DNA of 42,535 nt from Reclinomonas americana ATCC 50394 (Eukaryota): assembly GCA_048213135.1 (NCBI GenBank), contig PS015452.1, positions 2,336 to 44,870 of the forward strand. The letters run 5' to 3'. The notes under the pieces were generated by a model. The model was not told where the DNA came from. It searched no databases and saw only the letters and a list, made by a program, of their open reading frames with translations. Below, piece by piece: positions 3,638 through 42,414 of this stretch. Position numbers and translations under genes: made by a program. Numbering within the stretch: the stretch's first letter is position 1; each line of letters begins with the position of its first letter.

Positions 3638-3790
3638 CAAACACACAAACGCAAACAAGCAAACAAGCAAACAACCAAAAATCTAATGATCACAACAGCA
3701 AAACAGACGAAACACACAACAAACAACAAACAAATAACAAACTAAACAAGCTAATTAAGACAAGAATAACAAGAAAACCCAATAAAAATC
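3638..3790. repeat. A/C-rich low-complexity tract (AAAC/AAC-like)
   Basis: aaacacacaaacgcaaacaagcaaacaagcaaacaaccaaaa...aaacaacaaacaaataacaaactaaacaag. Confidence 0.8.
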
Positions 3791-4392: not shown

Positions 4393-5210
4393 CTACTCAC
4401 GCGCGTCTTCGCTTGTCTTTTGGTTCTCCGTCATCCGCGGCCGTGCCGCGAAGACGCTTGCTACCGCAGGTGCTGCCGGTGGCGGTGGCGGTGGTGCTGC
4501 TGCTGCTGACACCGCAGGTGCTGCCGGTGCTGCTGCTGCTGCTGCTGCTGCTGCGAGCGCTGCTTGCACTCCTGCCGGTGGCGGTGGCGGTGGTGGGCGC
4601 CGAGCTGCTGCCGCTGCTGCTGCTGCTGCTGCTGCTGCTGCGAGCGCTGCTTGCACTCCTGCCGGTGGCGGTGGCGGTGGCGGTGGCCGAGCTGCTGCCG
4701 CTGCTACTGCTGCCGCAACAAGCACACCTGCCGATGGCGGTGGTGGTGGCCTGCGAACCGCGGAAGCAGTGGGACACAATTGCAACGGAACACGTCAACC
4801 ACAACAACCAGTCTCCGACCAATCACTCACCCAGCTGCGCCGGCTGACAGCCACGCTTCAAAACGTGACCGGAATTCTAACAAGACGAGCTGCGCTGTTT
4901 CTAATGCCGTACGTAGCGGTGGTGCCGACGGAGGCGGTGGTGGTGGTGGTGGGCCGGCGCCGCCACCTGACGGCGGCACAACTCCAACATTTAGACAGGC
5001 AATGGTTGTCACAGAACTGGGGTCCCGAGAGACTTCCTTGCCGCCCAGGGGGCATTGCGGGTTCTGACACGTCATCTCCGTATCTGGTCCTGGCGGTGGA
5101 TCATAAGCCCAACCGCATCTGCACAGGCGAGTCGAGTTTCTCTCTGACGGACGCGGATTGTTGATAGCGTGCAAGCCGATGAGATCGCGTCGTCCATTGA
5201 CTTTCTCCAC
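4393..5210 (-). CDS. 3' exons of a spliced gene with TnpB/Fanzor-like C4 zinc finger and RuvC-III-like RD motif, followed by a Pro/Ala-rich tail
   Basis: Exon 5210-4831 (acceptor ttttgtcgcgcAG; donor GG|GTGAGT) reads VEKVNGRRDLIGLHAINNPRPSERNSTRLCRCGWAYDPPPGPDTEMTCQNPQCPLGGKEVSRDPSSVTTIACLNV... It splices in phase 2 to exon 4750-4393 (GPPPPPSAGVL...EDARE*; a possible further donor GTGAGT lies just before the stop). The 5' part is lost in gap 5295-6013. Confidence 0.5.
4466..4705. repeat. Internal tandem duplication (~87-bp unit) of GCT/GGT-GGC triplet blocks encoding poly-Ala/poly-Pro
   Basis: (gct)n-gcgagcgctgcttgcactcctgccggtggcggtggcggtgg occurs twice (~4530-4594 and ~4612-4686); caccgcaggtgctgccggtg is also repeated. 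Confidence 0.85.
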
Positions 5211-5294
5211 CTGCGCGACAAAATGAAAACGAGGGAATGGTTGGACAATAATAATCCGACGTTTCACGCACACACACATACACAGCGACGAAGA

Positions 5295-6013
5295 NNNNNN
5301 NNNNNNNNNNNNNNNNNNNNNNNNNNNNNNNNNNNNNNNNNNNNNNNNNNNNNNNNNNNNNNNNNNNNNNNNNNNNNNNNNNNNNNNNNNNNNNNNNNNN
5401 NNNNNNNNNNNNNNNNNNNNNNNNNNNNNNNNNNNNNNNNNNNNNNNNNNNNNNNNNNNNNNNNNNNNNNNNNNNNNNNNNNNNNNNNNNNNNNNNNNNN
5501 NNNNNNNNNNNNNNNNNNNNNNNNNNNNNNNNNNNNNNNNNNNNNNNNNNNNNNNNNNNNNNNNNNNNNNNNNNNNNNNNNNNNNNNNNNNNNNNNNNNN
5601 NNNNNNNNNNNNNNNNNNNNNNNNNNNNNNNNNNNNNNNNNNNNNNNNNNNNNNNNNNNNNNNNNNNNNNNNNNNNNNNNNNNNNNNNNNNNNNNNNNNN
5701 NNNNNNNNNNNNNNNNNNNNNNNNNNNNNNNNNNNNNNNNNNNNNNNNNNNNNNNNNNNNNNNNNNNNNNNNNNNNNNNNNNNNNNNNNNNNNNNNNNNN
5801 NNNNNNNNNNNNNNNNNNNNNNNNNNNNNNNNNNNNNNNNNNNNNNNNNNNNNNNNNNNNNNNNNNNNNNNNNNNNNNNNNNNNNNNNNNNNNNNNNNNN
5901 NNNNNNNNNNNNNNNNNNNNNNNNNNNNNNNNNNNNNNNNNNNNNNNNNNNNNNNNNNNNNNNNNNNNNNNNNNNNNNNNNNNNNNNNNNNNNNNNNNNN
6001 NNNNNNNNNNNNN
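5295..6013. other. Assembly gap separating the cadherin-like array from the zinc-finger exon
   Basis: Run of n. Confidence 1.
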
Positions 6014-9000
6014 CCAGAGATGTTGAACATGGCCGCATTCGCTCCACCAACAATCGAGTACGTGAATGTCTGCGCCGAGTTGCCGTCTGTGGTGGACAGA
6101 GTGCCCACCACGACATTGGCAGTGGTCGGCGGCGTGTACATCGTCGACGACAGTGCAATGTCCGACGGAGGGACGTTGGCTGCGGACCATTCGCAACAAT
6201 TAACCAGTTGCCGAACGCAACAACAGCTCAATCAAACTATCTTGCTCCGCACCTTCATCAATGACAAGCGTCTTGTCAAAGAACAGCGACCCGCTACCAC
6301 TATCGGTGGTGCGCACAATAACCACCAGTCCATTGCCCGTCTGCCCAGCCGCAGTGATGCGCAGCTGGTCGCCAGAGATGTTGAACACGGCAGCATTCGC
6401 TCCGCCCACAATTGAGTACGTGTACGTCTGGCATGAATTGGCATCAGTCGTCGACAGCCTGCCAACAACCATATTAGATGTGGACGGCGGCGTGTATGCC
6501 GCGATCGATATTGTGATGTCCGTGGGTACGACATTGGCTGCAATTGCAAGTATCGACGATGAGTGGGCAAGCACATGCGCACAACATAGATCTGCAAGCA
6601 CACACCTTCGTTAATCGTGAAGGTCTTGTCAAAGAACAGCGATCCACTGCCGCTGTCCGTCGATCGCACAATCACAACCAAGCCAGTTCCATTCTGCCCG
6701 CCGGTTGTGATGCGCAGCTGGGCGCCAGAGATGTTGAACATGGCAGCATTTGCTCCGCCCACAATCGTGTATGTGTACGTTTGGCACGAGTTGGCGTCCA
6801 CGGTGGAAAGCGAACCGACGGCCACATTGGCCGTGGTCGGCGGCAAGTACGTCACAGACGAAAGCACAACGTCCGTCGGCACAACATTCACTGTACAGGA
6901 GACGTGCGTGAGACACACGACGAGCAAAATCACCGGTGAATTGCCTGCAACAACACACCTTCGTTGACTGTGAATGTCTTGTCAAAGAACAGCGATCCAC
7001 TGCCACTGTCCGTCGATCGCACAGTCACCACCAAGCCAGTTCCATTCTGACCCGCAGTTGTGATGCGCAGCTGGGCACCAGAGATGTTGAACATGGCCGC
7101 ATTCGCTCCACCCACAATCGTGTACGTGAACGTCTGCGCCGAGTTGGCATCGGTCGTCGACAGGCTACCAATCACAAGATTGGCGGTGGTCGGCGGTGTA
7201 TATGTCGTCGCCGTCAGTGAAATGTCCGTCGGTGCAACATTCACTGCAATGCGCCGCATAAGGACCGGTCAGCAGAGAAAAACAGAACACAAAACATACC
7301 TTCGTTGATCGTGAATGTCTTGTCAAAGAACAATGATCCGATGCCGTTATCCGTCGATCGCACAATCACCACCAAGCCGGTTCCGTTCTGCCCAGCAGTT
7401 GTGATGCGCAGCTGCGCGCCAGAGATGTTGAACATGGCCGCGTTCGCTCCGCCCACAATCGTGTACGTGAACGTCTGCGCCGAGTTGGCATCGGTCGTTG
7501 ACAGGCTACCAATCACAAGATTGGCGGTGGTCGGCGGCGTGTACGTCGTCGACGACAGTGCAATATCCGACGGAGGGACATTGGCTGTGCGTCATTCGCA
7601 ACGCTTCATAAGTCGCCAAACGCAACAACAACTCAATCAAAACTCTCTCGCTCGTACCTTCGTCAATGATAAGCGTCTTGTCAAAGAACAGCGACCCACT
7701 GCCACTGTCGGTGGTGCGGACAATAACCACCAGTCCACTGCCCGTCTGCCCAGCCGCAGTGATGCGCAGCTGGTCGCCAGAGATATTGAACACAGCAGCA
7801 TTCGCTCCGCCCACAATCGAGTACGTGTATGTCTGGCACGAGTTCGCATCCACTGTCGATAGCACACCAACAACCATATTTGCGGTGGCCGGCAACGCGT
7901 ACTGTGTTGCCGACAACGTGATATCCGTGGGCGTGACATTGGCTGTAATGATAGTCGATGAGTGACCACGCCGATGAATCAAATCTCCCTCTCATACGCA
8001 TTCTCTCTCCACTGCACACAAATAGCAAGAATCGCAGCACAAACCCTCGTTGACCGTGAATGTCTTGTCAAAGAACAGCGATCCACTGCCACTGTCAGTT
8101 GATCGCACAATCACCACCAAGCCAGTTCCATTCTGCCCGGCCGTNNNNNNNNNNNNNNNNNNNNNNNNNNNNNNNNNNNNNNNNNNNNNNNNNNNNNNNN
8201 NNNNNNNNNNNNNNNNNNNNNNNNNNNNNNNNNNNNNNNNNNNNNNNNNNNNNNNNNNNNNNNNNNNNNNNNNNNNNNNNNNNNNNNNNNNNNNNNNNNN
8301 NNNNNNNNNNNNNNNNNNNNNNNNNNNNNNNNNNNNNNNNNNNNNNNNNNNNNNNNNNNNNNNNNNNNNNNNNNNNNNNNNNNNNNNNNNNNNNNNNNNN
8401 NNNNNNNNNNNNNNNNNNNNNNNNNNNNNNNNNNNNNNNNNNNNNNNNNNNNNNNNNNNNNNNNNNNNNNNNNNNNNNNNNNNNNNNNNNNNNNNNNNNN
8501 NNNNNNNNNNNNNNNNNNNNNNNNNNNNNNNNNNNNNNNNNNNNNNNNNNNNNNNNNNNNNNNNNNNNNNNNNNNNNNNNNNNNNNNNNNNNNNNNNNNN
8601 NNNNNNNNNNNNNNNNNNNNNNNNNNNNNNNNNNNNNNNNNNNNNNNNNNNNNNNNNNNNNNNNNNNNNNNNNNNNNNNNNNNNNNNNNNNNNNNNNGGT
8701 GATGCGCAGCTGGGTGCCAGAGATGTTGAACATGGCCGCATTCGCTCCGCCAACAATCGTGTATGTGTACGTCTGACACGAGTTGGCGTCCGCCGTTGAT
8801 AGATCTCCCACAACAAGGTTGGCTGCCGTCGGCGGAAGATATGTCGCAGCCGATAGCACAACATCTGTTGGTGCAACGTTGACTGGTGCAAGGAAACAGG
8901 CGTCGCGGTGAGGAGCAGCAACGAGAAAAGAAATCACACCGATGACAACAGACCTTCGTTGATCGTAAATGACTTGTCGAAGAATAGAGGCGATGCGCCG

Positions 9001-12000
9001 TTATCCGTCGATCGCACAATCACCACCAAGCCAGTTCCGTTCTGTCCAGCTGCTGTGATGCGTAGCTGCGCGCCAGAGATGTTAAACATGGCCGCATTCG
9101 CTCCGCCCACAATCGTGTATGTGAATGTCTGCGCCGAGTTGGCATCGGTCGTTGACAGGCTACCAATCACGAGATTGGCGGCGGTCGGTGGCGTGTACGT
9201 CGTCGCTGACAGTGCAATGTCCGTCGGAGCAACATTCGCTGAACGAGAAAAAAAGGAGTGAGAAATCACAGATGAGAGCACGCAGCTCCGAGATAATACG
9301 AACCCTCGTTGATCGTAAATGTCTTGTCGAAGAACAGAGGCGATGCACCATTATCTGTCGATCGCACAATTACAAGCAGACCGGTTCCATTCTGTCCAGC
9401 CGTCGTGATGCGCAGCTGAGCGCCAGAGATGTTGAACATGGCCGCATTCGCTCCACCCACAATCGTGTATGTAAACGTCTGAGCCGAATTGGCATCGGTC
9501 GTTGACAGAGTGCCCACCACGACATTGGCGGTGGTCGGAGGCGTGTACGTCGTCGCCGACAGAGCAATATCCGACGGCGAAACATTTCCTACAATGCAGA
9601 AATATCGATTACGGCGTAATCATACAAAAAACTAAAAAGAGTAATCAAACACACCTTCGTTAATCGTGAAGGTCTTGTCAAAGAACAGCGATCCACTGCC
9701 GCTGTCCGTCGATCGCACAATCACAACCAAGCCAGTTCCATTCTGCCCGGCGGTTGTGATGCGCAGCTGAGCGCCAGAGATGTTGAACATGGCTGCATTC
9801 GTTCCACCCACAATCGTGTACGTGTACGTTTGGCACGAATTGGCGTCCACGGTGGAAAGCGAACCGACGATGACGTTGGCCGTGGTCGGCGGCAAGTACG
9901 TCACAGACGAAATCGCAATGTCCGTCGGCGCAACATTCACTACAAGAGAATGTGTTATCATTAGAGAAGCATACACGCGAGTACCAAAACAAGCAACTGA
10001 CCTTCGTTGATCGTGAATGTCTTCTCGAAGTACAGTGATCCACTGCCGCTGTCGGTCGTCCGCACAATCACCACCAAGCCAATTCCATTTTGTCCGGCTG
10101 CCGTAATGCGCAGCTGGGCACCCGAGATGTTGAACGTGGCCGCATTCGCTCCCCCCACAATCGAGTACGTGAATGTCTGCGCCGAGTTGGCATCCGTCGT
10201 CGACAGGCTACCAATCACAAGATTGGCGGTGGTCGGCGGTGTATATGTCGTCGCCGTCAGCGCAATGTCCGTCGGTGCGACATTCGCTGCAACGGAACGC
10301 ATAAGATAACCGATCGCCTGTCAGCAGAGACAACAAAACACAAAACATACCTTCGTTGATCGTGAATGTCTTGTCGAAGAACAATGATCCGATGCCGTTA
10401 TCCGTCGATCGCACAATCACCACCAAGCCAGTTCCATTCTGACCGGCTGTCGTGATGCGCAGCTGCGCGCCAGAGATGTTGAACATGGCCGCATTCGCGC
10501 CGCCCACAATTGTGTACNNNNNNNNNNNNNNNNNNNNNNNNNNNNNNNNNNNNNNNNNNNNNNNNNNNNNNNNNNNNNNNNNNNNNNNNNNNNNNNNNNN
10601 NNNNNNNNNNNNNNNNNNNNNNNNNNNNNNNNNNNNNNNNNNNNNNNNNNNNNNNNNNNNNNNNNNNNNNNNNNNNNNNNNNNNNNNNNNNNNNNNNNNN
10701 NNNNNNNNNNNNNNNNNNNNNNNNNNNNNNNNNNNNNNNNNNNNNNNNNNNNNNNNNNNNNNNNNNNNNNNNNNNNNNNNNNNNNNNNNNNNNNNNNNNN
10801 NNNNNNNNNNNNNNNNNNNNNNNNNNNNNNNNNNNNNNNNNNNNNNNNNNNNNNNNNNNNNNNNNNNNNNNNNNNNNNNNNNNNNNNNNNNNNNNNNNNN
10901 NNNNNNNNNNNNNNNNNNNNNNNNNNNNNNNNNNNNNNNNNNNNNNNNNNNNNNNNNNNNNNNNNNNNNNNNNNNNNNNNNNNNNNNNNNNNNNNNNNNN
11001 NNNNNNNNNNNNNGTACTCGATTGTGGGCGGAGCGAATGCTGCCTTGTTCAACATCTCTGGCGACCAGCTGCGCATCACTGCGGCTGGGCAGACGGGCAG
11101 TGGACTGGTGGTTATCGTCCGCACCACCGACAATGGCAGTGGGTCCCTGTTCTTTGACAAGACGCTTATCATTGACGAAGGTACGAGCGAGAGAGTTTTG
11201 ATTGAGTTGTTGTTGCGTTTGGCGACTTATGAAGCGTTGCTAATGACGCACAGCCAATGTCCCTCCGTCGGATATTGCACTGTCGTCGACGACGTACACG
11301 CCGCCGACCACTGCCAATGTCGTGGTGGGCACTCTGTCCACCACAGACGGCAACTCGGCGCAGACATTCACNNNNNNNNNNNNNNNNNNNNNNNNNNNNN
11401 NNNNNNNNNNNNNNNNNNNNNNNNNNNNNNNNNNNNNNNNNNNNNNNNNNNNNNNNNNNNNNNNNNNNNNNNNNNNNNNNNNNNNNNNNNNNNNNNNNNN
11501 NNNNNNNNNNNNNNNNNNNNNNNNNNNNNNNNNNNNNNNNNNNNNNNNNNNNNNNNNNNNNNNNNNNGTGTACGTCTGGCATGAGTTGACATCGGTTGTC
11601 GATAGCACACCAACAACCATATTTGCGGTGGCCGTTAACACGTATTGTGTTGCCGACAACGTGATATCCGTGGGCGTGACATTGGCTGCCAGGATAGTCG
11701 ATGAGTGACCTCTCACACTCATTCTCTCTCTCTCTCTCCATTGCACACAAAACGCAAGAATCGCAGCACAAACCCTCGTTGATCGTGAATGTCTTGTCGA
11801 AGAACAGCGATCCATTGCCATTGTCAGTTGATCGGATGATCACCACCAAGCCAGTTCCATTCTGGCCAGCTGTCGTGATGCGCAGCTGGGTGCCAGAGAT
11901 GTTGAAGAGCGCCGCATTCGCTCCGCCAACAATCGTGTACGTGAATGTTTGACACGAATTGACGTCCGTCGTTGACAGACCTCCTACAACAAGGTTGGCT

Positions 12001-15000
12001 GTCGTCGGCGGGACGTATGTGGCAGCCGATAGCACAACGTCAGTTGGTGCAACGTTGACTGGTCAACATTGAAGAACGAAGCAGTGAGTAAAGAAAGCGA
12101 GAACAACGAGATCCATGACGTCGCAGACCTTCGTTAATCGTGAATGTCTTCTCGAAGAACAGCGATCCACTGCCACTGTCAGTCGTCCGCACAATCACCA
12201 CCAAGCCAGTTCCATTCTGTCCGGCCGTGGTGATGCGCAGCTGTGTGCCAGAGATGTTGAACATCGCCGCATCGGCACCACCCACAATCGTGTACGTGTA
12301 CGTCTGAGCCGAGTTGGCATCGGTTGTCGTCAGACTGCCAATCACGAGATTGGCAGTGGTAGGCGGCGTGTACGTCGTCGCCGACAGNNNNNNNNNNNNN
12401 NNNNNNNTGTCAGTCGGTGCAACATTCACTGATCGATGGAAGAAGGCAAAGGAGTGAGAACATTAGATGGCATGGAGAACTTGCCATATAGGAGGACAGA
12501 CAAACCTTCGTTGATTGTAAATGTCTTGTCGACAAACAGTGATCCACTGCCGTTGTCAGTCGATCGCACAATTACCACCAAGCCAGTTCCATTCTGCCCG
12601 GCCGTGGTGATGCGCAGCTGTGTGCCAGAGATGTTGAACATGGCCGCATTGGCTCCGCCAACAATCGTGTACGTGTACGTCTGAGCCGAGTTGGCATCGG
12701 TCGTGGACAGGTTACCGATCACGAGATTGGTGGTGGTCGGTGGCGTGTACGTCGTCGCTGACAGCGCAATATCCGTCGGTGCAACATTCACTGATCGATG
12801 GAAGAAGGCAAAAGAGTGAGAACATCAGGTGGAATGAAGAACTCGCCATCTGGGAGCACAGACAGACCCTCGTTGATTGTGAATGTTTTGTCGAAGAACA
12901 GAGGTGATGCGCCGCTATCCGTCGATCGCACAATCACAACCAAGCCAGTTCCATTCTGACCGGCTGTCGTGATGCGCAATTGTGCGCCAGAGATGTTGAA
13001 CATTGCCGCATTCGCTCCGCCCACAATCGTGTACGTGAATGTCTGAGCCGAGTTGGCATCGGTTGTCGACAGATTGCCTACCACGAGATTGGCAGTGGTC
13101 GGTGGTGTGTACGTCGTCGCCGACAGTGCAATGTCCGTCGGGGAAACATTGGCTGCGAAAGTACGAGAGAAGATGAGGCCTCTTCGAACGTTGTGACGAT
13201 TAGTGAAGCCACCATGACCGTACCTTCGTCAATGACAAGCGTCTTGTCAAAGAACAGCGACCCGCTGCCATTGTCGGTGGTGCGCACAATAACCACCAGT
13301 CCGCTGCCAGTCTGTCCAGCCGCAGTAATGCGCAGCTGGTCGCCAGAGATGTTGAACAAGGCAGCATTCGCCCCGCCCACAATCGTGTACGTGTACGTCT
13401 GGCACGAGTTGGCATCGGTTGCCGAGAGCGATCCGACGACAATGTTGGCTGTTGACGGTGGTGCATACGTAATCGATGTCAGCGCAATATCCGTCGGCGC
13501 CACATTCACTGCACGATAGAAGAAGGTGACTGGGTGAGAACGGCAGGTAGTGTGTGAAGCAAACGGCGACTGACCTTCGTTGATGGTGAATGTCTTGTCG
13601 AAGAACAATGGTGATGCACCGTTGTCTGTCGATCGCACAATCACGACCAGGCCGGTTCCATTCTGCCCAGCTATCGTGATGCGCAGCTGGGCACCCGAGA
13701 CGTTGAACATGGCCGCATTCGCTCCACCCACAATCGTGTACGTGAACGTCTGCGCCGAGTTGGCATCGGTTGTGGACAGACTGCCAACAATAAGATTGGC
13801 GGTGGTCGGTGGTGTGTACGTCGCGGCTGACAGCGCAATATCCGTCGGCGCAATATTGACTGAACAAAAGAAAACGAGTGAATGAGAAATCACAGATGAG
13901 AACACGCAGCTCCAAGATAATACAAACCTTCGTTGATCGTAAATGTCTTGTCGAAGAACAGCGGTGATGCACCACTGTCCGTCACTCGCACAATCACCAC
14001 CAACCCCGTTCCATTCTGTCCGGCCGTCGTGATGCGCAGTTGCGAGCCAGAGATGTTGAACATGGCCGCATTAGCTCCACCGACAATCGTGTACGTGAAT
14101 GTCTGGGCCGAATTGGCATCAGTCGTCGACAGAGTGCCGATCACGAGATTGGCGGTGGTCGGCGGCGTGTACGTCGTCGCCGACAGTGCAATGTCGGTCG
14201 GTGCAACATTGACTGCACATCATCAAGAGCGGTGTAAGTTTTGTTGACGCAACAGAAACAACAAAGCGTGACACAAATTGCAGTACCTTCGTCAATGACA
14301 AGGGTCTTGTCAAAGAACAGCGATCCGCTGCCACTATCGGTGGTGCGGACGATAACCACCAGTCCATTGCCCGTCTGCCCGGCCGCAGTGATGCGCAGCT
14401 GGTCGCCAGAGATATTGAACAAGGCCGCATTGGCTCCGCCCACAATCGTGTACGTGTACGTTTGACACGAATTGGCATCGGTTGTCGACAGGTTACCAAT
14501 CACGAGATTGACAGTCGTCGGCAGCGTGTACGATGCAGCCGATATTGTGATGTCCGTGGGCGTGACATTGGCTGTAATGATAGTCAATGAGTGACCACGC
14601 CGATGAAGCTCTCACACTCATTCTCTCTATACACTACACGTACAGAGAGAGCAAGAATCGCGTCACACACCTTCGTTGATTGTGAATGTCTTGTCGAAGA
14701 ACAGCGATCCGCTGCCACTGTCAGTGGATCGGACAATCACCACCAGCCCCGTTCCATTCTGCCCGGCTGTCGTGATGCGCAGCTGCGTGCCAGAGATGTT
14801 GAACATGGCCGCATTCGCTCCGCCAACAATCGTGTACGTGTACGTCTGACACGAATTGCCATCCGTGGTTGACAGAGTGCCCACCACGACGTTGGCGGTG
14901 GTCGGCGGCGCATATGTCAACGACGACATTGCAATGTCCGTCGGCGCAAGGTTCACTGTACAGGAGGCCCGTGTGAGACATAGGATGAGTAAAGTCACCT

Positions 15001-17484
15001 GCACATTGCTTGTGGCAACACACCTTCGTTGATTGTGAATGTCTTGTCGAAGAACAGCGACCCACTACCGCTGTCCGTCGATCGCACAATCACTTGATAG
15101 CCATCGCCGAGGACACCCGCTGCTGTGATGCGCAGCTGAGCGCCTGAGATGTTGAACATGGCCGCATTCGCTCCGCCGACAATCGTGTACGTGAACGTCT
15201 GCGCCGAGTTGGCATCCGTCGTCGACAGGCTACCAATCACGAGGTTGGTGGTGGTCGGTGGTGTGTATGTCGTCGCCGTCAGTGCAATGTCCGTCGGCGC
15301 AACATTCACTGAACGATGGAACAAGGCGAATAAGTAATCAACGGCTGGGAGAATGGAGACTTTGCCAGACAAGAACATAAACCTTCGTTGATCGTGAATG
15401 TCTTGTCGAAGAACAGCGATCCTATGCCGCTGTCCGTCGATCGCACAATCACCACCAAGCCAGTTCCATTCTGACCGGCTGTCGTGATGCGCAGCTGAGC
15501 GCCCGAGATGTTGAACATGGCCGCATTCGCTCCGCCCACAATCGTGTAGGTGAATGTCTGTGCCGAGTTGCCGTCTGTTGTGGACAGAGTGCCCACCACG
15601 ACATTGGCAGTGGTCGGCGGCGTGTACGTCGTCGACGACAGTGCAATATTCGTCGGCGGAAGGTTAACTACACGTTCATCGAGAGCGACATATAAGCTAC
15701 CAAAGAAATGGACACGTAGACAAAGTCTAGCACCGCCGCACCTTCGTTAACGACAAGCGTCTTGTCAAAGAACAGTGATCCACTGCCACTGTCAGTCGAG
15801 CGTACAGTCACCACCAGTCCACTGCCGGTCTGCCCGGCCGCGGTGATGCGCAGCTGATCGCCCGAGATGTTGAACAAGGCAGCATTCGCACCCCCCACAA
15901 TCGTGTACGTGTACGTCTGGCACGAATTCACATCCGTTGTCGACAGCGAACCGATGACAACATTGGCTGTTGACGGTGGTGCATATGTTGTTATTGATAT
16001 CAAAATGTCCGTGGGTGCGACATTTGCTGCGATTACAGTTATAAGTTAATAAATTCATACATGAAGAAGGCCAACAAACACGCACCTTCGTTGATGGTAA
16101 ATGTCTTGTCGAAGAACAGAGGTAATGCACCATTATCTGTCGATCGAACAATCACCACCAAGCCGGTTCCATTCTGTCCGGCTGTCGTGATGCGCAGCTG
16201 GGCACCCGAGATGTTGAACATGGCCGCATTAGCTCCGCCAACAATCGTGTACGTGAACGACTGGCCCGAGTTGGCATCGGTTGTGGACAGACTGCCAATC
16301 ACAAGATTGGCTGTCGTCGGAGGCGTGTACGTTGTCGCCGTCAGTGCAACGTCCGTCGGCGCAACATTCACTGCGTATTACAGCAACAGTCAGTGAGACA
16401 CAGAATTACGAGACGCAACTGACTCCGTCAGCCGTACCCTCATCGATGGTAAATGTTTTGTCGAAGACCAGCGATCCACTGCCGTTGTCAGTAGATCGCA
16501 CAATCACCACCAAGCCAGTTCCATTCTGGCCGGCTGTCGTGATCCGCAGCTGCGCGCCAGAGATGTTGAACAAGGCAGCACTAGTGCCGCCCACAATCGT
16601 GTACGTGAACGACTGGCCCAAGTTGGCATCGGTCGTCGACAGCGCACCGACAACCATGTTGGCGGTGGTCGGTGGCGCGTACGTCGTCGCCGACAGTGCA
16701 ATGTCCGTTGGAGAAAAATTGACTGACGTGGCACGGGTCAGACAATGTAACACAGTCCAAGTAGCACACAACCACCTGCCATACCTTCGTCAATGACAAG
16801 CGTCTTGTCGAAGAACAGCGACCCGCTGCCGTTATCCGTCGATCGCACAGTCACCAGTAGTCCACTGCTTGTCTGCCCGGCCGCAGTGATGCGGAGTTGG
16901 TTGCCGAGAATGTTGAACAAAGCAGCATTCGCTCCGCCCACAATCGTGTACGTGTACGTCTGGCACGAGTTGACATCCGTGGTCGACAGCGAACCGACGA
17001 CGAGGTTGGCTGTCGATGGTGGCATGTATGAAGCGATCGAAATCGTGATGTCAGTGGGTGCAACATTGGCTGCACACACAAAGAGGAGAGTTGGAGTGAG
17101 GAGGAGACACGCAGGCGCAATGAAAGTAGGTGTCGGGCAGACCTTCGTCGATCGTGAATGTCTTGTCGAAGAACAGCGACATGTTGCTGTCAAGCGTCGA
17201 ACGTACAATCACCACCAGGCCGGTTCCATTCTGACCGGCTGTGGTGATGCGCAGCTGAGCGCCAGAGATGTTGAACATGGACGCATTCGCTCCCCCCACA
17301 ATCGTGTACGAGAACGATTGACCACCGACGGCACTCGATGACGACAGGGTGCCTATCACGAGATTGGCGGTAGTCGGTGGTGTGTACGTCGTCGCCGATA
17401 GTGCAACATCCGTCGGCGCTGGACTCGCTGCATCGCAATTGATGATAATGAGTGAGGAATGGCATTCACCCCAATCGCGTGTGC

Positions 17485-17517
<33 letters not shown>

Positions 17518-18171
17518 AGAGTTGGAGGAGGAGGCGGATGAGGAGAAGGAGGAGCGGATGAGGAACGGGAGGAGGACGAGGACGTGGAAGAAGGAGGGAA
17601 GAAGGGAGGAAGAAGACGAGGGTTGAGGAAAAATCAAGTCTGCTCCCTCTCTCCCTCTCTCACTTCCGCGCGCGCAAGTTGCGTGTCACCTCTCTCGCTA
17701 GTTCACGCACGCCAGCACTCTGACTCTTTGAAGGGCAGACAAACACACATCGTAGAGAGAGAAAAAGGCGGGAAAAATGTTTGGTAACGGAGAAAACCGA
17801 CTTCGCAGCGGATTAGTGCTCGGAAGCTCTCTTGCCCTCCTTGTGTGTATGACATGGCTCTGTGTGTGTGTGCAGTGTGCCGCAAAGTGTGCGCAACACG
17901 CATGCCTCGTGCATTTTTGTCGAGACACGCATTGATGAGAGATTGCGCGGCAACAATGTGGGGAAAGATGAGTACATATGCACACACGTGCACACACACG
18001 CACAGACTCTATACTGTCTGCTCTCACTGCATGTGTGTGTGATTGCGCGCGTGCGTGTGTGTGTGCGTGAGAGGGGAGAGAGAGGGGGGTTTGTGCGTGT
18101 GCGACATGCGCAACGCGGAGAGGAAACTCCAAACAGAGATTCGCGTGTGTAGCACGGCGGCGAACAGCGCG

Positions 18172-18221
<50 letters not shown>

Positions 18222-18422
18222 AGAGAGAGCGACGGAGAGAGCGATATCACGTCACATAGAAGTCCTCTTCACCGACTGTTCTACGATGCAAATGTGCGCA
18301 GGAGGCGGGAAAAGCAAAAGAGAAACGCAACCGGCGGAGGCAATAGAGGCCATCAACAACAGCAGCAGCAGCCACGGCACGACTGACGTGTGCCACGGAG
18401 GGCGAACTCTTCTCGTGCCCAT
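6014..18422 (-). CDS. Giant secreted/surface protein with >=29 tandem cadherin-like (bacterial-type) domains, one per exon; 3' end lost in gap
   Basis: Signal exon 18422-18332, then 285-nt AG|..GA(A/G)G|GT exons: 17427-17143, 17069-16785, 16722-16438, 16370-16086, 16026-15742, 15667-15383, 15308-15024, 14955-14671, 14571-14287, 14212-13928, 13859-13575, 13508-13224, 13152-12868, 12790-12506, 12428-12129 (20-N gap), 12058-11774, 11685-11568 + (11014-11180 inverted), (11254-11371 inverted) + 10517-10351, 10286-10002, 9939-9655, 9588-9304, 9238-8954, 8882-8698 + 8144-8045, 7942-7658, 7584-7300, 7243-6959, 6890-6606, 6537-6253, 6179-<6014. Consensus: (A/V)NVAPTDIALSATTYTPPTTANLVIGSLSTTDANS(A/C)QTFTYTIVGGANAAMFNISGAQLRITTAGQNGTGLVVIVRSTDSGSGSLFFDKTFTINE. 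Confidence 0.9.
8145..8697. other. Assembly gap inside repeat exon 23
   Basis: Run of n; flanks (185+100 nt) add up to exactly 285 nt in frame. Confidence 0.95.
11014..11371 (+). other. Small contig of the repeat gene in opposite orientation (3' part of exon 17, intron, 5' part of exon 18)
   Basis: Repeat sequence on the + strand between gaps 10518-11013 and 11372-11567; when flipped it completes both neighbouring partial exons to exactly 285 nt (118+167 each). Confidence 0.9.
17485..17630. repeat. (GA)n microsatellite and purine-rich tract in intron 1 of the array gene
   Basis: agagagagagagaggagagagagaga...ggaggaggaggcggatgaggagaagg. Confidence 0.9.
18175..18219. repeat. (GT)n microsatellite
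   Basis: Perfect GT run. Confidence 0.97.
18332..18422 (-). CDS. Signal-peptide exon of the cadherin-like array gene
   Basis: ATG at 18422; MGTRRVRPPWHTSVVPWLLLLLLMASIASA (basic n-region, Leu h-region, A-S-A cleavage motif), then G|GTTGCG donor in phase 1, matching the phase-1 acceptors of all repeat exons. Implies a 904-nt first intron if spliced directly to 17427. Confidence 0.75.
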
Positions 18423-20938: not shown

Positions 20939-23029
20939 TCACCGTGCTCCGGCTGTGTTTGTGTAGTTGGTTTTGGTCAACTGCTGCGCACAACAATCCC
21001 CCCCCCCCCCCCCCCCTCGCATGCTCGTATGTGCCGCACCTTGGCTTCGAGTATCCGACGGACAGCCGCCTTGTCGACCATGCGCGCGGTGAAGCTGGCA
21101 CACAGGTACACGGTCTCCATCATCGACAACTTGTTGGTGGCGTACGTGGTCTTGACCATTTCCTCCCGCTGCAGGAACCCAATGAAATCGTGCCGAGTGT
21201 AGTACTACGCTTGTGCATGGCCACTCACCTCCATCTCAAACCCGTATGCGAGCATGACCTCGCGCAGCTCCTCGTATGAAATCTCAATGGACTCGCCTGT
21301 CTCTGCGTAGTGGAATAGGAGCGGACCTGCACTTGCACACCGTCGTTGGTGAGCACACGTCTACACCACCATGGAATGAAAAACGACTGTGGCCACACCG
21401 AAATTGATCCACACGCCGCCGGCACGAAGCACGTTCTGTGTGCACCGACCAGGCAATGAGCGGTTCTACTGTGGCCGAGGCACAACTGCCGTCCACCTCA
21501 CCGCCAGTACTTCCACGTACTCGACCACGTTGCGTGCAGTGTCAAGAAAGAAACACGTGAGTACGGCGGCGTACTCATCTGCCCGAAAAAAACAAAAGAG
21601 TGAGTGGGGTGCACAGACATCCTTGCACTTTTGCACTCCCCACCATCCTCTGGGCTTTGCACTTCCCTCTCGAGCTCTCACTCACCTGCGGAGTCCACGT
21701 ACACATCCACAAAATCGCCGGCGCTCATCGACATTTGCCCTACGGTGTCGCCCGCCACATCAATCTCGCTGCCTGGATGCACATCGGGCACCATGACCGC
21801 TCGCAGCTGGTCCGACACCTGGAGCACGTTGCACGTTTGGTGCACAAATGGGTAGATGGCCACCGGTTCACGCGATATTCTATTATTGGAGTGAATCGAC
21901 AAGCACGGAACGCGATCGTGGAGCACAGAGAGAGTAGAGTCACCTGTTCAGCACAAAGTTGCTGCCCAGCAGCATGTGCATCGACCATTCGTTGCCTTCG
22001 CTCGCGAAACCTTCACCGCATACCCAGGCACACTCAATTCCACTGTCGCTCACCGGCCACACCGCTACGCGTTCGGCACTCACCACGCATCGCCACCTCG
22101 TATGTTAGCCGGCCGAGTCCGGCACCGGGAGTGAGCACGCGCAGCTCCTGCCTGGTCGCCGTCTCTCGGGGATAGACACGCTCCAGCTCGCGAAGCATTA
22201 CACCATACGTCGCCTCACGCTCCGCGACACCCTGCGCCACGCAACACGTGAGCGAAGAAGACAGTCGAGGGACAGCTGCCGTGCCGACCGACCTCGCCAC
22301 TCCAGTCGCGCACGAACTGGCGTAGAGTACTGCGCACCTTATCCATATCATCGGCTCGCACAATCTGCTCCCCTCCCCGCACACATGGAGTCACCACCAG
22401 CGAGGGTGGCACACAAACACACATTGCCGACTTTGTATCGTACATACATCGATCGCCGACACGACTCCCCCGTAGTGCTGCACATCTCACATTGCACACT
22501 TGTCGTCAGCACGCGCGCTACTCCGCGAGTTCACGAACGCGCATCGCACCTGTGGCTGGTTGTGAAACACATCGGTGTCGCCAATGATATCGTTGAGGAA
22601 GGCTTGATTGCGTTGAATCGCCGTCTTTGTCTGCTCCGCCTTGAAGCTGTGTGCGCACGCAAGCGCGTGGGTGAGACACGTAGTGACGCCTGCGCGGAGA
22701 ACTCGCCGAGACTCAACTCGACTTGTCGTAACACCGCCAGGTGACGCGCCGGTAATCGTCGGAACTCGCTCTGCATCTGCTCCAGCACACGCAACGAGTG
22801 ATTGGCGTACAACATGAACGAGCGCACTGTCTTGCGAAAGAGTCGCGCTTCCTCGGCCTCGTCGTCGTCGTCGGCGGCCACTGCCGCCTCGAATGCACGT
22901 TGCTCCTGTGCAATGTCATCGCCATCGCCCCGCTCTTGCTGCGCGTGTGCACGGCTTGAGCTGCAACGCTACACCGATACGAGAGGCGCGCTTACTCGTA
23001 CGCACCTCCGCGCGCTCCGCCTCCGCCAT
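20939..23029 (-). CDS. CARNMT1: Carnosine N-methyltransferase-like (N2227 family SAM-dependent methyltransferase), multi-exon
   Basis: Exon peptides DMDKVRSTLRQFVRDWS, RVLTPGAGLGRLTYEVA (SAM motif I), GNEWSMHMLLGSNFVLN, IYPFVHQTCN..DQLRAVMVPDV, MSMSAGDFVDVY, VLTCFFLDTARNVVEY, WINFG/PLLFHY, SIEISYEEL. Inferred start MAEAERAE|RCSSS (ATG 23029); inferred stop 20939-20941. Confidence 0.9.

Positions 23030-42322: not shown

Positions 42323-42414
<92 letters not shown>
42323..42414. repeat. (AC)n microsatellite
   Basis: Perfect AC run of ~92 nt. Confidence 0.97.

Follow-up and report, generated by a model that had tools for sequence, protein, structure and literature searches.

A divergent, bacterial-type cadherin-fold repeat gene with one exon per domain in Reclinomonas americana

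We analysed 42,535 nucleotides of the Reclinomonas americana ATCC 50394 genome (assembly GCA_048213135.1, contig PS015452.1, positions 2,336 to 44,870 of the forward strand), a stretch that we call the window and number from its first letter. Its minus strand holds a divergent repeat gene that is laid out with high regularity, one exon per domain; the domains are of a bacterial-type cadherin fold and lack the usual calcium ligands. The explanation that we regard as probable is a constitutively spliced gene, kept under purifying selection, for a secreted or surface-exposed, calcium-independent fibre of cadherin-fold domains belonging to a bacterial-type subfamily.

In this explanation one eukaryotic gene would begin with an N-terminal signal-peptide exon and continue with about 30-34 tandem cassette exons, each giving exactly one 95-residue cadherin-fold beta-sandwich, with a phase-1 intron in the linker. 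All cassettes would most likely be spliced in constitutively, yielding a chain some 3000 residues long; a product above 2700 residues, as proposed in a first-pass annotation of this DNA, is likely if they are. The product would be a beads-on-a-string fibre, secreted or held at the surface, that might serve as an adhesin, coat or matrix protein. An extended cadherin domain measures about 4.5 nm, and at that length per domain the fibre, if extended, would be more than 100 nm long. Loss of the acidic interdomain calcium residues from a bacterial-type cadherin subfamily would leave a fibre that does without calcium. Exon-plus-intron units and multi-unit blocks would have been duplicated repeatedly, and their copies kept by purifying selection.

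An array of equal-length, phase-symmetric exons

The entire minus strand was scanned for the pattern AG, 285 nt open in phase 1, and GT. The scan returned 53 stretches, comprising 24 in-register repeat exons, five out-of-register overlaps within the array and 24 chance open reading frames (ORFs) elsewhere. The pattern alone is thus not specific, since unrelated chance ORFs in this GC-rich window match it as well. The complete repeat exons lie between 6253 and 17427; each is exactly 285 nt long, open, flanked by AG and GT and in phase 1-1 (Table 1, where the low-coordinate end of every complete exon is its high-coordinate start minus 284 nt).

Translations of the 24 complete cassettes were aligned (alignment A1; 94 columns, mean column identity 87%). 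Run against the six frames of the window, the A1 profile gave 32 matches, all within 6010-17419: the 24 complete exons, one exon with a 20-N gap and seven fragments that stop at N runs. Wherever a fragment shows an exon edge, the expected AG or GT is found. The cassette count is 29 if gap-facing fragments are halves of one exon, and 32 are visible if they are separate; the spacing implies about 32 units in the interval, with room for two more in the last gap (719 N). Tandem Repeats Finder reports arrays of period 350-359 nt at 6014-17419. The window has six N runs, five of them within or bordering the interval reported for the array. One 358-nt contig between two gaps, at 11014-11371, is inverted; we read it as most likely a scaffolding error in a repeat that is hard to assemble, because in flipped orientation it fits the half-exons on either side.

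The 20 introns between complete exons measure 56-99 nt and eight further introns that adjoin fragments 64-102 nt; all 28 are GT...AG. On the exon side the donor reads GA(A/G)G at every cassette intron, and a YTNAY branch-point-like motif lies 14-41 nt from the 3' end in 19 of the 20 introns. The first-pass annotation had described at least 29 symmetric cassettes of identical length separated by introns of ~55-100 nt, and both the minimum count and the intron lengths agree with what we find. The GC fraction is 0.556 in exons (0.666 at third codon positions, GC3) and 0.471 in introns. Three of the 20 intron lengths are divisible by three, and a single intron can be read through without a stop or frameshift.

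Pairwise comparison of the 24 exons (276 pairs) shows a mean DNA identity of 0.78, with a range of 0.66-0.94. Median synonymous divergence (dS) is 0.82 and median nonsynonymous divergence (dN) 0.13; dN/dS has a median of 0.155 and stays at or below 1 in every pair. Together with introns that are divergent and variable in length, these low ratios show that the cassettes are old duplicates held by purifying selection, and they argue that the intervening pieces are removed.

The split codon at cassette junctions encodes A, V or G, giving a repeat period of 95 residues, and the junction between domains reads ...INE / A/V/G / NVAPTD..., with a phase-1 intron in between. A B type, recognised by the hallmarks G-D-Q-L-R-I-T-A-A-G-Q-T-G and K-T-L-V-I-D-E, accounts for six of the 24 complete cassettes (2nd, 5th, 9th, 12th, 20th and 24th). 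These return every three to four units, are closer to one another than to adjacent cassettes and form one clade in a quick tree of 99 columns (support 99 by the Shimodaira-Hasegawa-like approximate likelihood ratio test, SH-aLRT). Some distant intron pairs are also still alike. Given the recurrence of the B type, the alike distant introns and the 94% identical exon pair of Table 1, the array grew through duplication both of single exon-plus-intron units and of multi-unit blocks.

Exactly one Cys is present in 10 of the 24 cassettes. It stands at position 35 in every B-type cassette of the array (6253-17427) and also occurs in four A-type cassettes. A lone unpaired Cys per domain could possibly permit intermolecular disulfide cross-links. 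The 24 cassettes together hold 54 N-x-S/T sequons, at which glycosylation is possible; N-I-S at position 52, found in 23 of 24, may be structural, since the motif is common in bacterial relatives too.

Fold, homology and calcium-ligand positions of the cassette

We searched 1.84 billion representative proteins with a profile built from window cassettes only, which matched 7077 at E<=1e-3 and 704 at E<=1e-30. All 13 of the top matches that were scanned with Pfam carry many PF00028 Cadherin repeats, and most of the 13 also hold bacterial modules (Por_Secre_tail, CHU_C, SLH, dockerin, Cadherin_4, Big_9). The matches that name an organism are all bacterial; entries called "cadherin domain-containing protein" come from Silvanigrellaceae, Chitinophagales and Paenibacillus, and further named matches from Bacteroidota, Rhodopirellula, Flavobacterium and Lysinibacillus. 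The best per-domain identity to these bacterial relatives is 40-47% over 98% of the cassette.

Nineteen loci in bacterial genomes (L001-L019) yielded 54 full-length domain segments. They span Planctomycetota, Bacteroidota, Chloroflexota, Bdellovibrionota, Pseudomonadota and Campylobacterota, the last with short partial matches only. When single bacterial segments were compared with PF00028, 11 of 12 matched at E<=0.01 and four of 12 scored above the gathering score. A metagenome scan gave 17 loci at 39-48% identity, a range like that of the bacterial genome loci, to which it contributed nothing new. Furthermore, the ESM Atlas neighbours of one cassette were Cadherin clusters in eight of the 10 rows shown (score 0.95-0.96).

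A second alignment, A2, joined the 24 cassettes and 51 bacterial segments (75 rows). At E<=0.01 its profile matched 107 distinct Protein Data Bank (PDB) sequences. The 60 that were listed are without exception metazoan cadherins, led by CELSR1 (1.9e-35). From A2, AlphaFold2 predicted seven strands with a predicted local distance difference test (pLDDT) of 93.3 and a predicted template modelling score (pTM) of 0.85. The model agrees with the seven-strand Greek-key beta-sandwich, about 100-110 residues long and with its termini at opposite ends, that characterises an extracellular cadherin (EC) domain. Foldseek against the PDB listed a cadherin, protocadherin or desmosomal cadherin in every row (best E 8e-4, query template modelling score, TMq, 0.74-0.77). 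Predicted fold and profile homology, the latter by way of bacterial intermediates, both support a beta-sandwich of cadherin type. The predicted domain spans the whole exon translation, which places the intron in the interdomain linker. The first-pass annotation had proposed a cadherin-like fold with one domain per symmetric 1-1 exon, and on both counts it stands. What it missed is that Pfam Cadherin does not recognise the cassettes, that calcium ligands are lost and that the closest relatives are bacterial rather than metazoan.

The loss was seen by comparing motifs in A2, the 24 window rows against the 51 bacterial rows, at positions where the bacterial rows are strongly acidic or amide (D, E or N in 75-96% at positions 2, 16, 17 and 36). 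Position 2, where bacterial rows have E or D after the linker N, is V, L or another non-acidic residue in the window (D/E/N in 0/24). At position 16 the bacterial E (48/51) is P in 22 cassettes and L in two, and the N of position 17 is P in all 24; Thr and Pro abound in the segment that stands in place of this E-N motif. The second D of D-x-D, at position 33, is N in 23 of 24, and the D or N of position 36 is Q in 24/24. A bacterial D-N falls in an insertion where the window has no residue, and the D-x-E in the stretch before strand F is deleted or Q. N1, D31, D78 and D/E87 are kept in the window. Position 94 in the linker, which is V, I or L in bacteria, is an invariant E.

We take the lost positions to be the x-E-x, D-x-D, D-R-E and D-x-N-D-N-x-P calcium ligands of cadherins. 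Since acidic ligand residues are replaced or deleted, the cassette linkers would bind calcium weakly or not at all, and the fibre is probably calcium-independent. Loss of the acidic motifs is likewise the reason that the Pfam Cadherin model fails on the cassettes.

Three other matches were set aside. Single cassettes hit Beta-tre_PLH30 and HigB_toxin in Pfam below threshold (E 0.04-0.1), which we attribute to chance; HigB_toxin appears also as a zero-stretch match on bacterial cadherin proteins, a compositional echo of this repeat type. The sole PDB match of the window-only profile, a VP4 chain (E 0.72), was rejected as unrelated.

Relatives and origin of the cassette

A search among proteins of similar length found one close relative, P0193, a 141-residue protein from an environmental assembly (741-nt contig) with 69% identity along the full length of a cassette. 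At both ends it continues into presumed flanking introns, with exon borders as in the window cassettes, and it shares traits otherwise specific to the window: no E-N motif, T-D-A-N-S and a shortened A-G-Q-T-G-S-G stretch. P0193 had no Pfam match at E<=0.01. Because of this identity, the shared traits and the intron-like flanks, we conclude that the exon unit occurs in at least one further gene or organism. Among representative proteins none is more than 50% identical to a cassette, which suggests that the array gene is not annotated in public protein sets.

In the quick tree P0193 is sister to all 24 cassettes. Support for the joint clade, which sits on a branch of length 0.62, is 100; within it the window cassettes group together at 88. 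The window clade falls among bacterial segments, nearest Planctomycetaceae, with moderate SH-aLRT support (82). The subfamily motifs FNISG-x-QLR and TFTYT are common to the window cassettes and to segments from Planctomycetota, Bacteroidota, Chloroflexota and Bdellovibrionota.

We lean towards acquisition of the cassette from bacteria, followed by gain of the linker intron and amplification, because similarity is strong to a phylogenetically broad set of bacteria and there is none to metazoan cadherins. As regards origin only, the cassette might instead be an old, vertically inherited eukaryotic cadherin that came to look bacterial as it diverged from the metazoan type. The available text of PMC4265756 reports cadherins in several non-animal eukaryotes; in addition the window clade sits on a long branch, its placement among bacterial segments is only moderately supported in what is a quick tree, and that tree held no metazoan or choanoflagellate cadherin domains. 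Against vertical descent, the thousands of proteins matched by the window-only profile, at 40-47% identity per domain, are bacterial in every case inspected. That profile recovers no PDB cadherin at E<=10, whereas A2 recovers 107 at E<=0.01, and the two subfamily motifs are common to the cassettes and four bacterial phyla. We consider vertical descent rather unlikely.

The closest sequence relatives are thus giant bacterial surface proteins with cadherin domains (L001-L019, P0008 and P0010), which combine PF00028 repeats with type IX secretion system (T9SS) tails, SLH, dockerin or sortase signals. The likeness extends to the length class of the domain (95 versus 94-102 residues), the motifs NxAPTD, FNISG-x-QLR and VR-TD, and tandem arrays of 5-33 domains. 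The bacterial genes, however, are intron-free and carry prokaryotic secretion or anchor modules, whereas the window gene has 28 GT-AG introns; E16, D33 and D-x-E are kept there and replaced or deleted in the window cassettes; and 11/12 bacterial segments match Pfam Cadherin as against 0/4 window cassettes.

Long metazoan cadherins (cadherin-23, protocadherin-15, FAT/CELSR) likewise place many EC domains behind a signal peptide, and some of their linkers also lack calcium sites. They differ in showing no direct sequence similarity to the window-only profile, and in having a membrane span and cytoplasmic tail, neither of which was seen in the window. In metazoans an EC domain does not as a rule correspond to one exon, and clustered protocadherins have their ectodomains encoded by single large exons. 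Symmetric phase 1-1 domain exons that multiplied by tandem duplication are known from titin Ig/FN3, extracellular-matrix modules and the sponge aggregation factor. The window gene resembles such modular proteins in having one domain per symmetric exon, growth by duplication and an expected extracellular location. Those are animal genes with other domain types, whereas here the domain is a bacterial-type cadherin, the introns are very short and the cassettes exactly equal.

The cadherins of non-animal eukaryotes were reportedly found with standard cadherin domain models, whereas the standard Pfam Cadherin model misses the window cassettes. What they share with the window gene is the occurrence of cadherin-domain proteins in unicellular eukaryotes, the domain not being confined to animals (PMC4265756, in the text available).

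Gene ends, rival explanations and meaning

The 5' end was sought among 112 candidates running from an ATG to a phase-1 GT in the 3 kb upstream of cassette 1. The top hydrophobic window is a 91-nt exon whose peptide looks like a signal: a basic RRVR, a Leu-rich core and small residues at the end. A 91-nt phase-1 signal exon upstream of the array, as the first-pass annotation had it, is present as described and plausible as the best of the candidates; that it is the signal-peptide exon of the array gene is likely but unproven. The putative intron between it and cassette 1 contains (AG)19 at 17485-17575 and (GT)22 at 18175-18219.

At the other end, the last visible cassette fragment runs into a gap of 719 N (5295-6013). 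Beyond it lies a candidate last coding exon behind a pyrimidine-rich acceptor (Table 1). An alternative frame from 5210 is open for 127 codons to 4830, and needs phase 0 or an AG nine bases further. This frame (4830-5210, minus strand) includes several Cys and a run of eight Pro. It had no Pfam match at E<=1, and its best ESM Atlas score was 0.78; it may belong to the tail of this gene, read in a different phase, or to some other gene, or it may be open merely by chance, the DNA being GC-rich. GC3 did not separate the two candidate tail frames. A look at hydrophobicity in coding-like sequence downstream of the array showed no credible membrane span, and a Pfam scan of the window found no bacterial tail domain. 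Hydrophobic stretches at ~3680-3790 were rejected as a membrane span, being T-rich, low-complexity, non-coding sequence. Low-complexity, GCN-rich DNA at 4495-4713 contains 2.2 copies of an 87-nt unit (95% matches), and several of its frames, on both strands, are open.

Elsewhere in the window, the sole Pfam-recognised piece among 148 ORFs outside the array is a piece of CARME (carnosine N-methyltransferase, PF07942) at 22037-22390 on the minus strand (E 1.5e-11), for which a homologue search found one 425-residue protein at 56% identity. An (AC)46 microsatellite lies at 42323-42414.

Table 1. Features of the array gene in the window, in the order of the minus strand
Feature	Position	Strand	Basis
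Putative first coding exon, 91 nt: ATG, 30 codons + 1 nt, phase 1, donor CCG/GTTGCG	18332..18422	-	Hydrophobicity ranking
Putative intron 1, 904 nt, GT..AG, CT/CA microsatellites	17428..18331	-	Solely the frame match of signal exon to cassette 1
Repeat exon 1, most divergent cassette of the array, starts SPAPTD, 285 nt, phase 1-1	17143..17427	-	Exon scan, profile
Repeat exon 2, B type	16785..17069	-	Exon scan, profile, type comparison
Repeat exon 3	16438..16722	-	Exon scan, profile
Repeat exon 4, query of structure model	16086..16370	-	Exon scan, profile, structure prediction
Repeat exon 5, B type	15742..16026	-	Exon scan, profile, type comparison
Repeat exon 6	15383..15667	-	Exon scan, profile
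Repeat exon 7	15024..15308	-	Exon scan, profile
Repeat exon 8	14671..14955	-	Exon scan, profile
Repeat exon 9, B type	14287..14571	-	Exon scan, profile, type comparison
Repeat exon 10	13928..14212	-	Exon scan, profile
Repeat exon 11	13575..13859	-	Exon scan, profile
Repeat exon 12, B type	13224..13508	-	Exon scan, profile, type comparison
Repeat exon 13	12868..13152	-	Exon scan, profile
Repeat exon 14	12506..12790	-	Exon scan, profile
Repeat exon with 20-N gap (12388-12407), both splice sites present	12129..12428	-	Profile, edge check
Repeat exon, 15th complete	11774..12058	-	Exon scan, profile
Fragment, repeat-exon codons 1-40, truncated at gap 11372-11567	11568..11685	-	Profile, edge check
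Inverted 358-nt contig between two gaps: end of one repeat exon (to 11180), 73-nt intron, start of the next (from 11254)	11014..11371	+	Profile, edge check
Fragment, repeat-exon codons 39-94, truncated at gap 10518-11013	10351..10517	-	Profile, edge check
Repeat exon, 16th complete	10002..10286	-	Exon scan, profile
Repeat exon, 17th complete; DNA 94% identical to 6606-6890	9655..9939	-	Exon scan, pairwise comparison
Repeat exon, 18th complete	9304..9588	-	Exon scan, profile
Repeat exon, 19th complete	8954..9238	-	Exon scan, profile
Fragment, codons 1-62, truncated at gap 8145-8697	8698..8882	-	Profile, edge check
Fragment, codons 61-94, truncated at gap 8145-8697	8045..8144	-	Profile, edge check
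Repeat exon, 20th complete, B type	7658..7942	-	Exon scan, type comparison
Repeat exon, 21st complete	7300..7584	-	Exon scan, profile
Repeat exon, 22nd complete	6959..7243	-	Exon scan, profile
Repeat exon, 23rd complete	6606..6890	-	Exon scan, profile
Repeat exon, 24th complete, B type	6253..6537	-	Exon scan, type comparison
Fragment of further repeat exon, codons 1-56, truncated at gap 5295-6013	6014..6179	-	Profile, edge check
Candidate last coding exon after the gap; phase 1 gives 36 hydrophilic residues, stop 5101-5103	5101..5210	-	Pyrimidine-rich acceptor ending at 5211

Several points weigh against a constitutively spliced gene for a calcium-independent cadherin-fold fibre. The repeat region is poorly assembled, with five gaps and one inverted contig, and the gap at 5295-6013 hides the gene end, and with it the place of any anchor, further domain or stop. 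The donor of the signal exon is weaker than the GAAG/GT donors of the cassettes, and putative intron 1 is far longer, at 904 nt, than the 56-102 nt of the other introns. Support for removal of the intervening pieces by splicing is strong but indirect. As to the fold, four cassettes scanned singly at E<=1 gave no match to Pfam Cadherin PF00028, and a PDB search with the window-only profile brought up no cadherin at E<=10. The confident structure model leans on the bacterial rows, and AlphaFold2 on the 24 window paralogues alone reached a pLDDT of 54.8, which is unusable. Finally, calcium independence is argued from residue loss only, and the four remaining acidic positions could still bind metal.

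A true cadherin receptor, membrane-anchored and used for calcium-dependent adhesion or prey capture as in choanoflagellates, with transmembrane and cytoplasmic parts in or beyond the gap at 5295-6013, would account for the cadherin fold, the signal-like first exon and a gene end that is hidden in or after the gap. Cadherins are reported in choanoflagellates, filastereans, Thecamonas trahens and Pythium ultimum (PMC4265756, in the text available). We nevertheless find a receptor improbable, because the acidic positions of the bacterial relatives, which presumably line the interdomain calcium sites in cadherins, are replaced in 24/24 cassettes, Pfam Cadherin gives no match, coding-like downstream sequence shows no hydrophobic span and the phase-1 continuation beyond the gap stops after 36 hydrophilic residues. 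The five N gaps, the inverted 358-nt contig and the lack of any homologue above 50% identity among representative proteins would fit an unexpressed, decaying tandem array, or an assembly artefact that inflated and scrambled a much shorter gene. Yet every one of the 24 complete cassettes has an open frame and intact splice sites, and a dN/dS of 0.155 at a dS of 0.82 speaks of long-lasting purifying selection on many distinct copies. The copies differ by 6-34% in DNA and so are not collapsed or duplicated reads of one unit, and P0193 provides a 69%-identical unit with the same exon borders in an environmental assembly. A pseudogene or artefact is thus very improbable.

The first-pass annotation had also raised a combinatorial surface-protein system, in which subsets of cassettes are skipped to vary length and identity. 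In this array, skipping would change both the length of the isoforms and their sequence of A- and B-type domains. Any skip would keep the frame, because the 24 complete cassettes are symmetric throughout and share one length, and since two sequence types alternate (six B among 24) the isoforms would differ in more than length. Dscam and the clustered protocadherins also have arrays of similar cassette exons for adhesion-type domains. Dscam makes a mutually exclusive choice through pairing of docking and selector RNA, and protocadherins have one promoter per variable exon. The window cassettes, by contrast, stand in series, separated by short introns in which we found no conserved element: no 8-mer is common to more than three of the 20 introns, and the longest stretches complementary to intron 1 (7-11 nt) are no better than those of 1000 shuffles (mostly 6-9 nt, up to 13), although both comparisons, limited to exact matches, are a weak test. 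Short introns of 56-102 nt, all GT-AG and with a branch-point-like motif in 19 of 20, follow the pattern of intron-defined constitutive splicing. The cassettes start in phase 1 and have no ATG leader, no separate promoter or leader exons stand ahead of them, and with a mean column identity of 87% they are so alike that there is little identity to encode. Exon skipping is, moreover, much commoner in bilaterian animals than in all other eukaryotic groups, according to the text available of PMC6335736. Of the readings considered, we give regulated skipping the least credence. The chance is equally slight for the full scenario in which the protist took a bacterial cadherin-repeat gene, placed a spliceosomal intron precisely in the linker, amplified the unit more than 30-fold and uses regulated skipping to vary the length and the A/B order of a calcium-free fibre; if true, cassette-based surface diversity would have been invented independently outside animals.

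Cadherin-fold repeat proteins hold a central place in thinking about adhesion before animals, and surveys of them use standard domain models. A cadherin-fold gene in a protist is not new in kind, since cadherins are reported in several non-animal eukaryotes (PMC4265756, within the text available), and current views are not overturned. The array shows that a whole eukaryotic cadherin-fold family can escape the standard domain models, given that Pfam returned no match at E<=1. It provides a clean non-animal example of domain-repeat growth by exon-plus-intron duplication, with a higher-order A/B pattern. If bacterial ancestry is true, it would also document that a transferred gene gained an intron in the linker, at a point that is structurally neutral. 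Furthermore, with its calcium ligands uniformly lost, the array can serve as a test case for cadherin chains that do without calcium. The array thereby contributes a divergent member and a tidy model locus.

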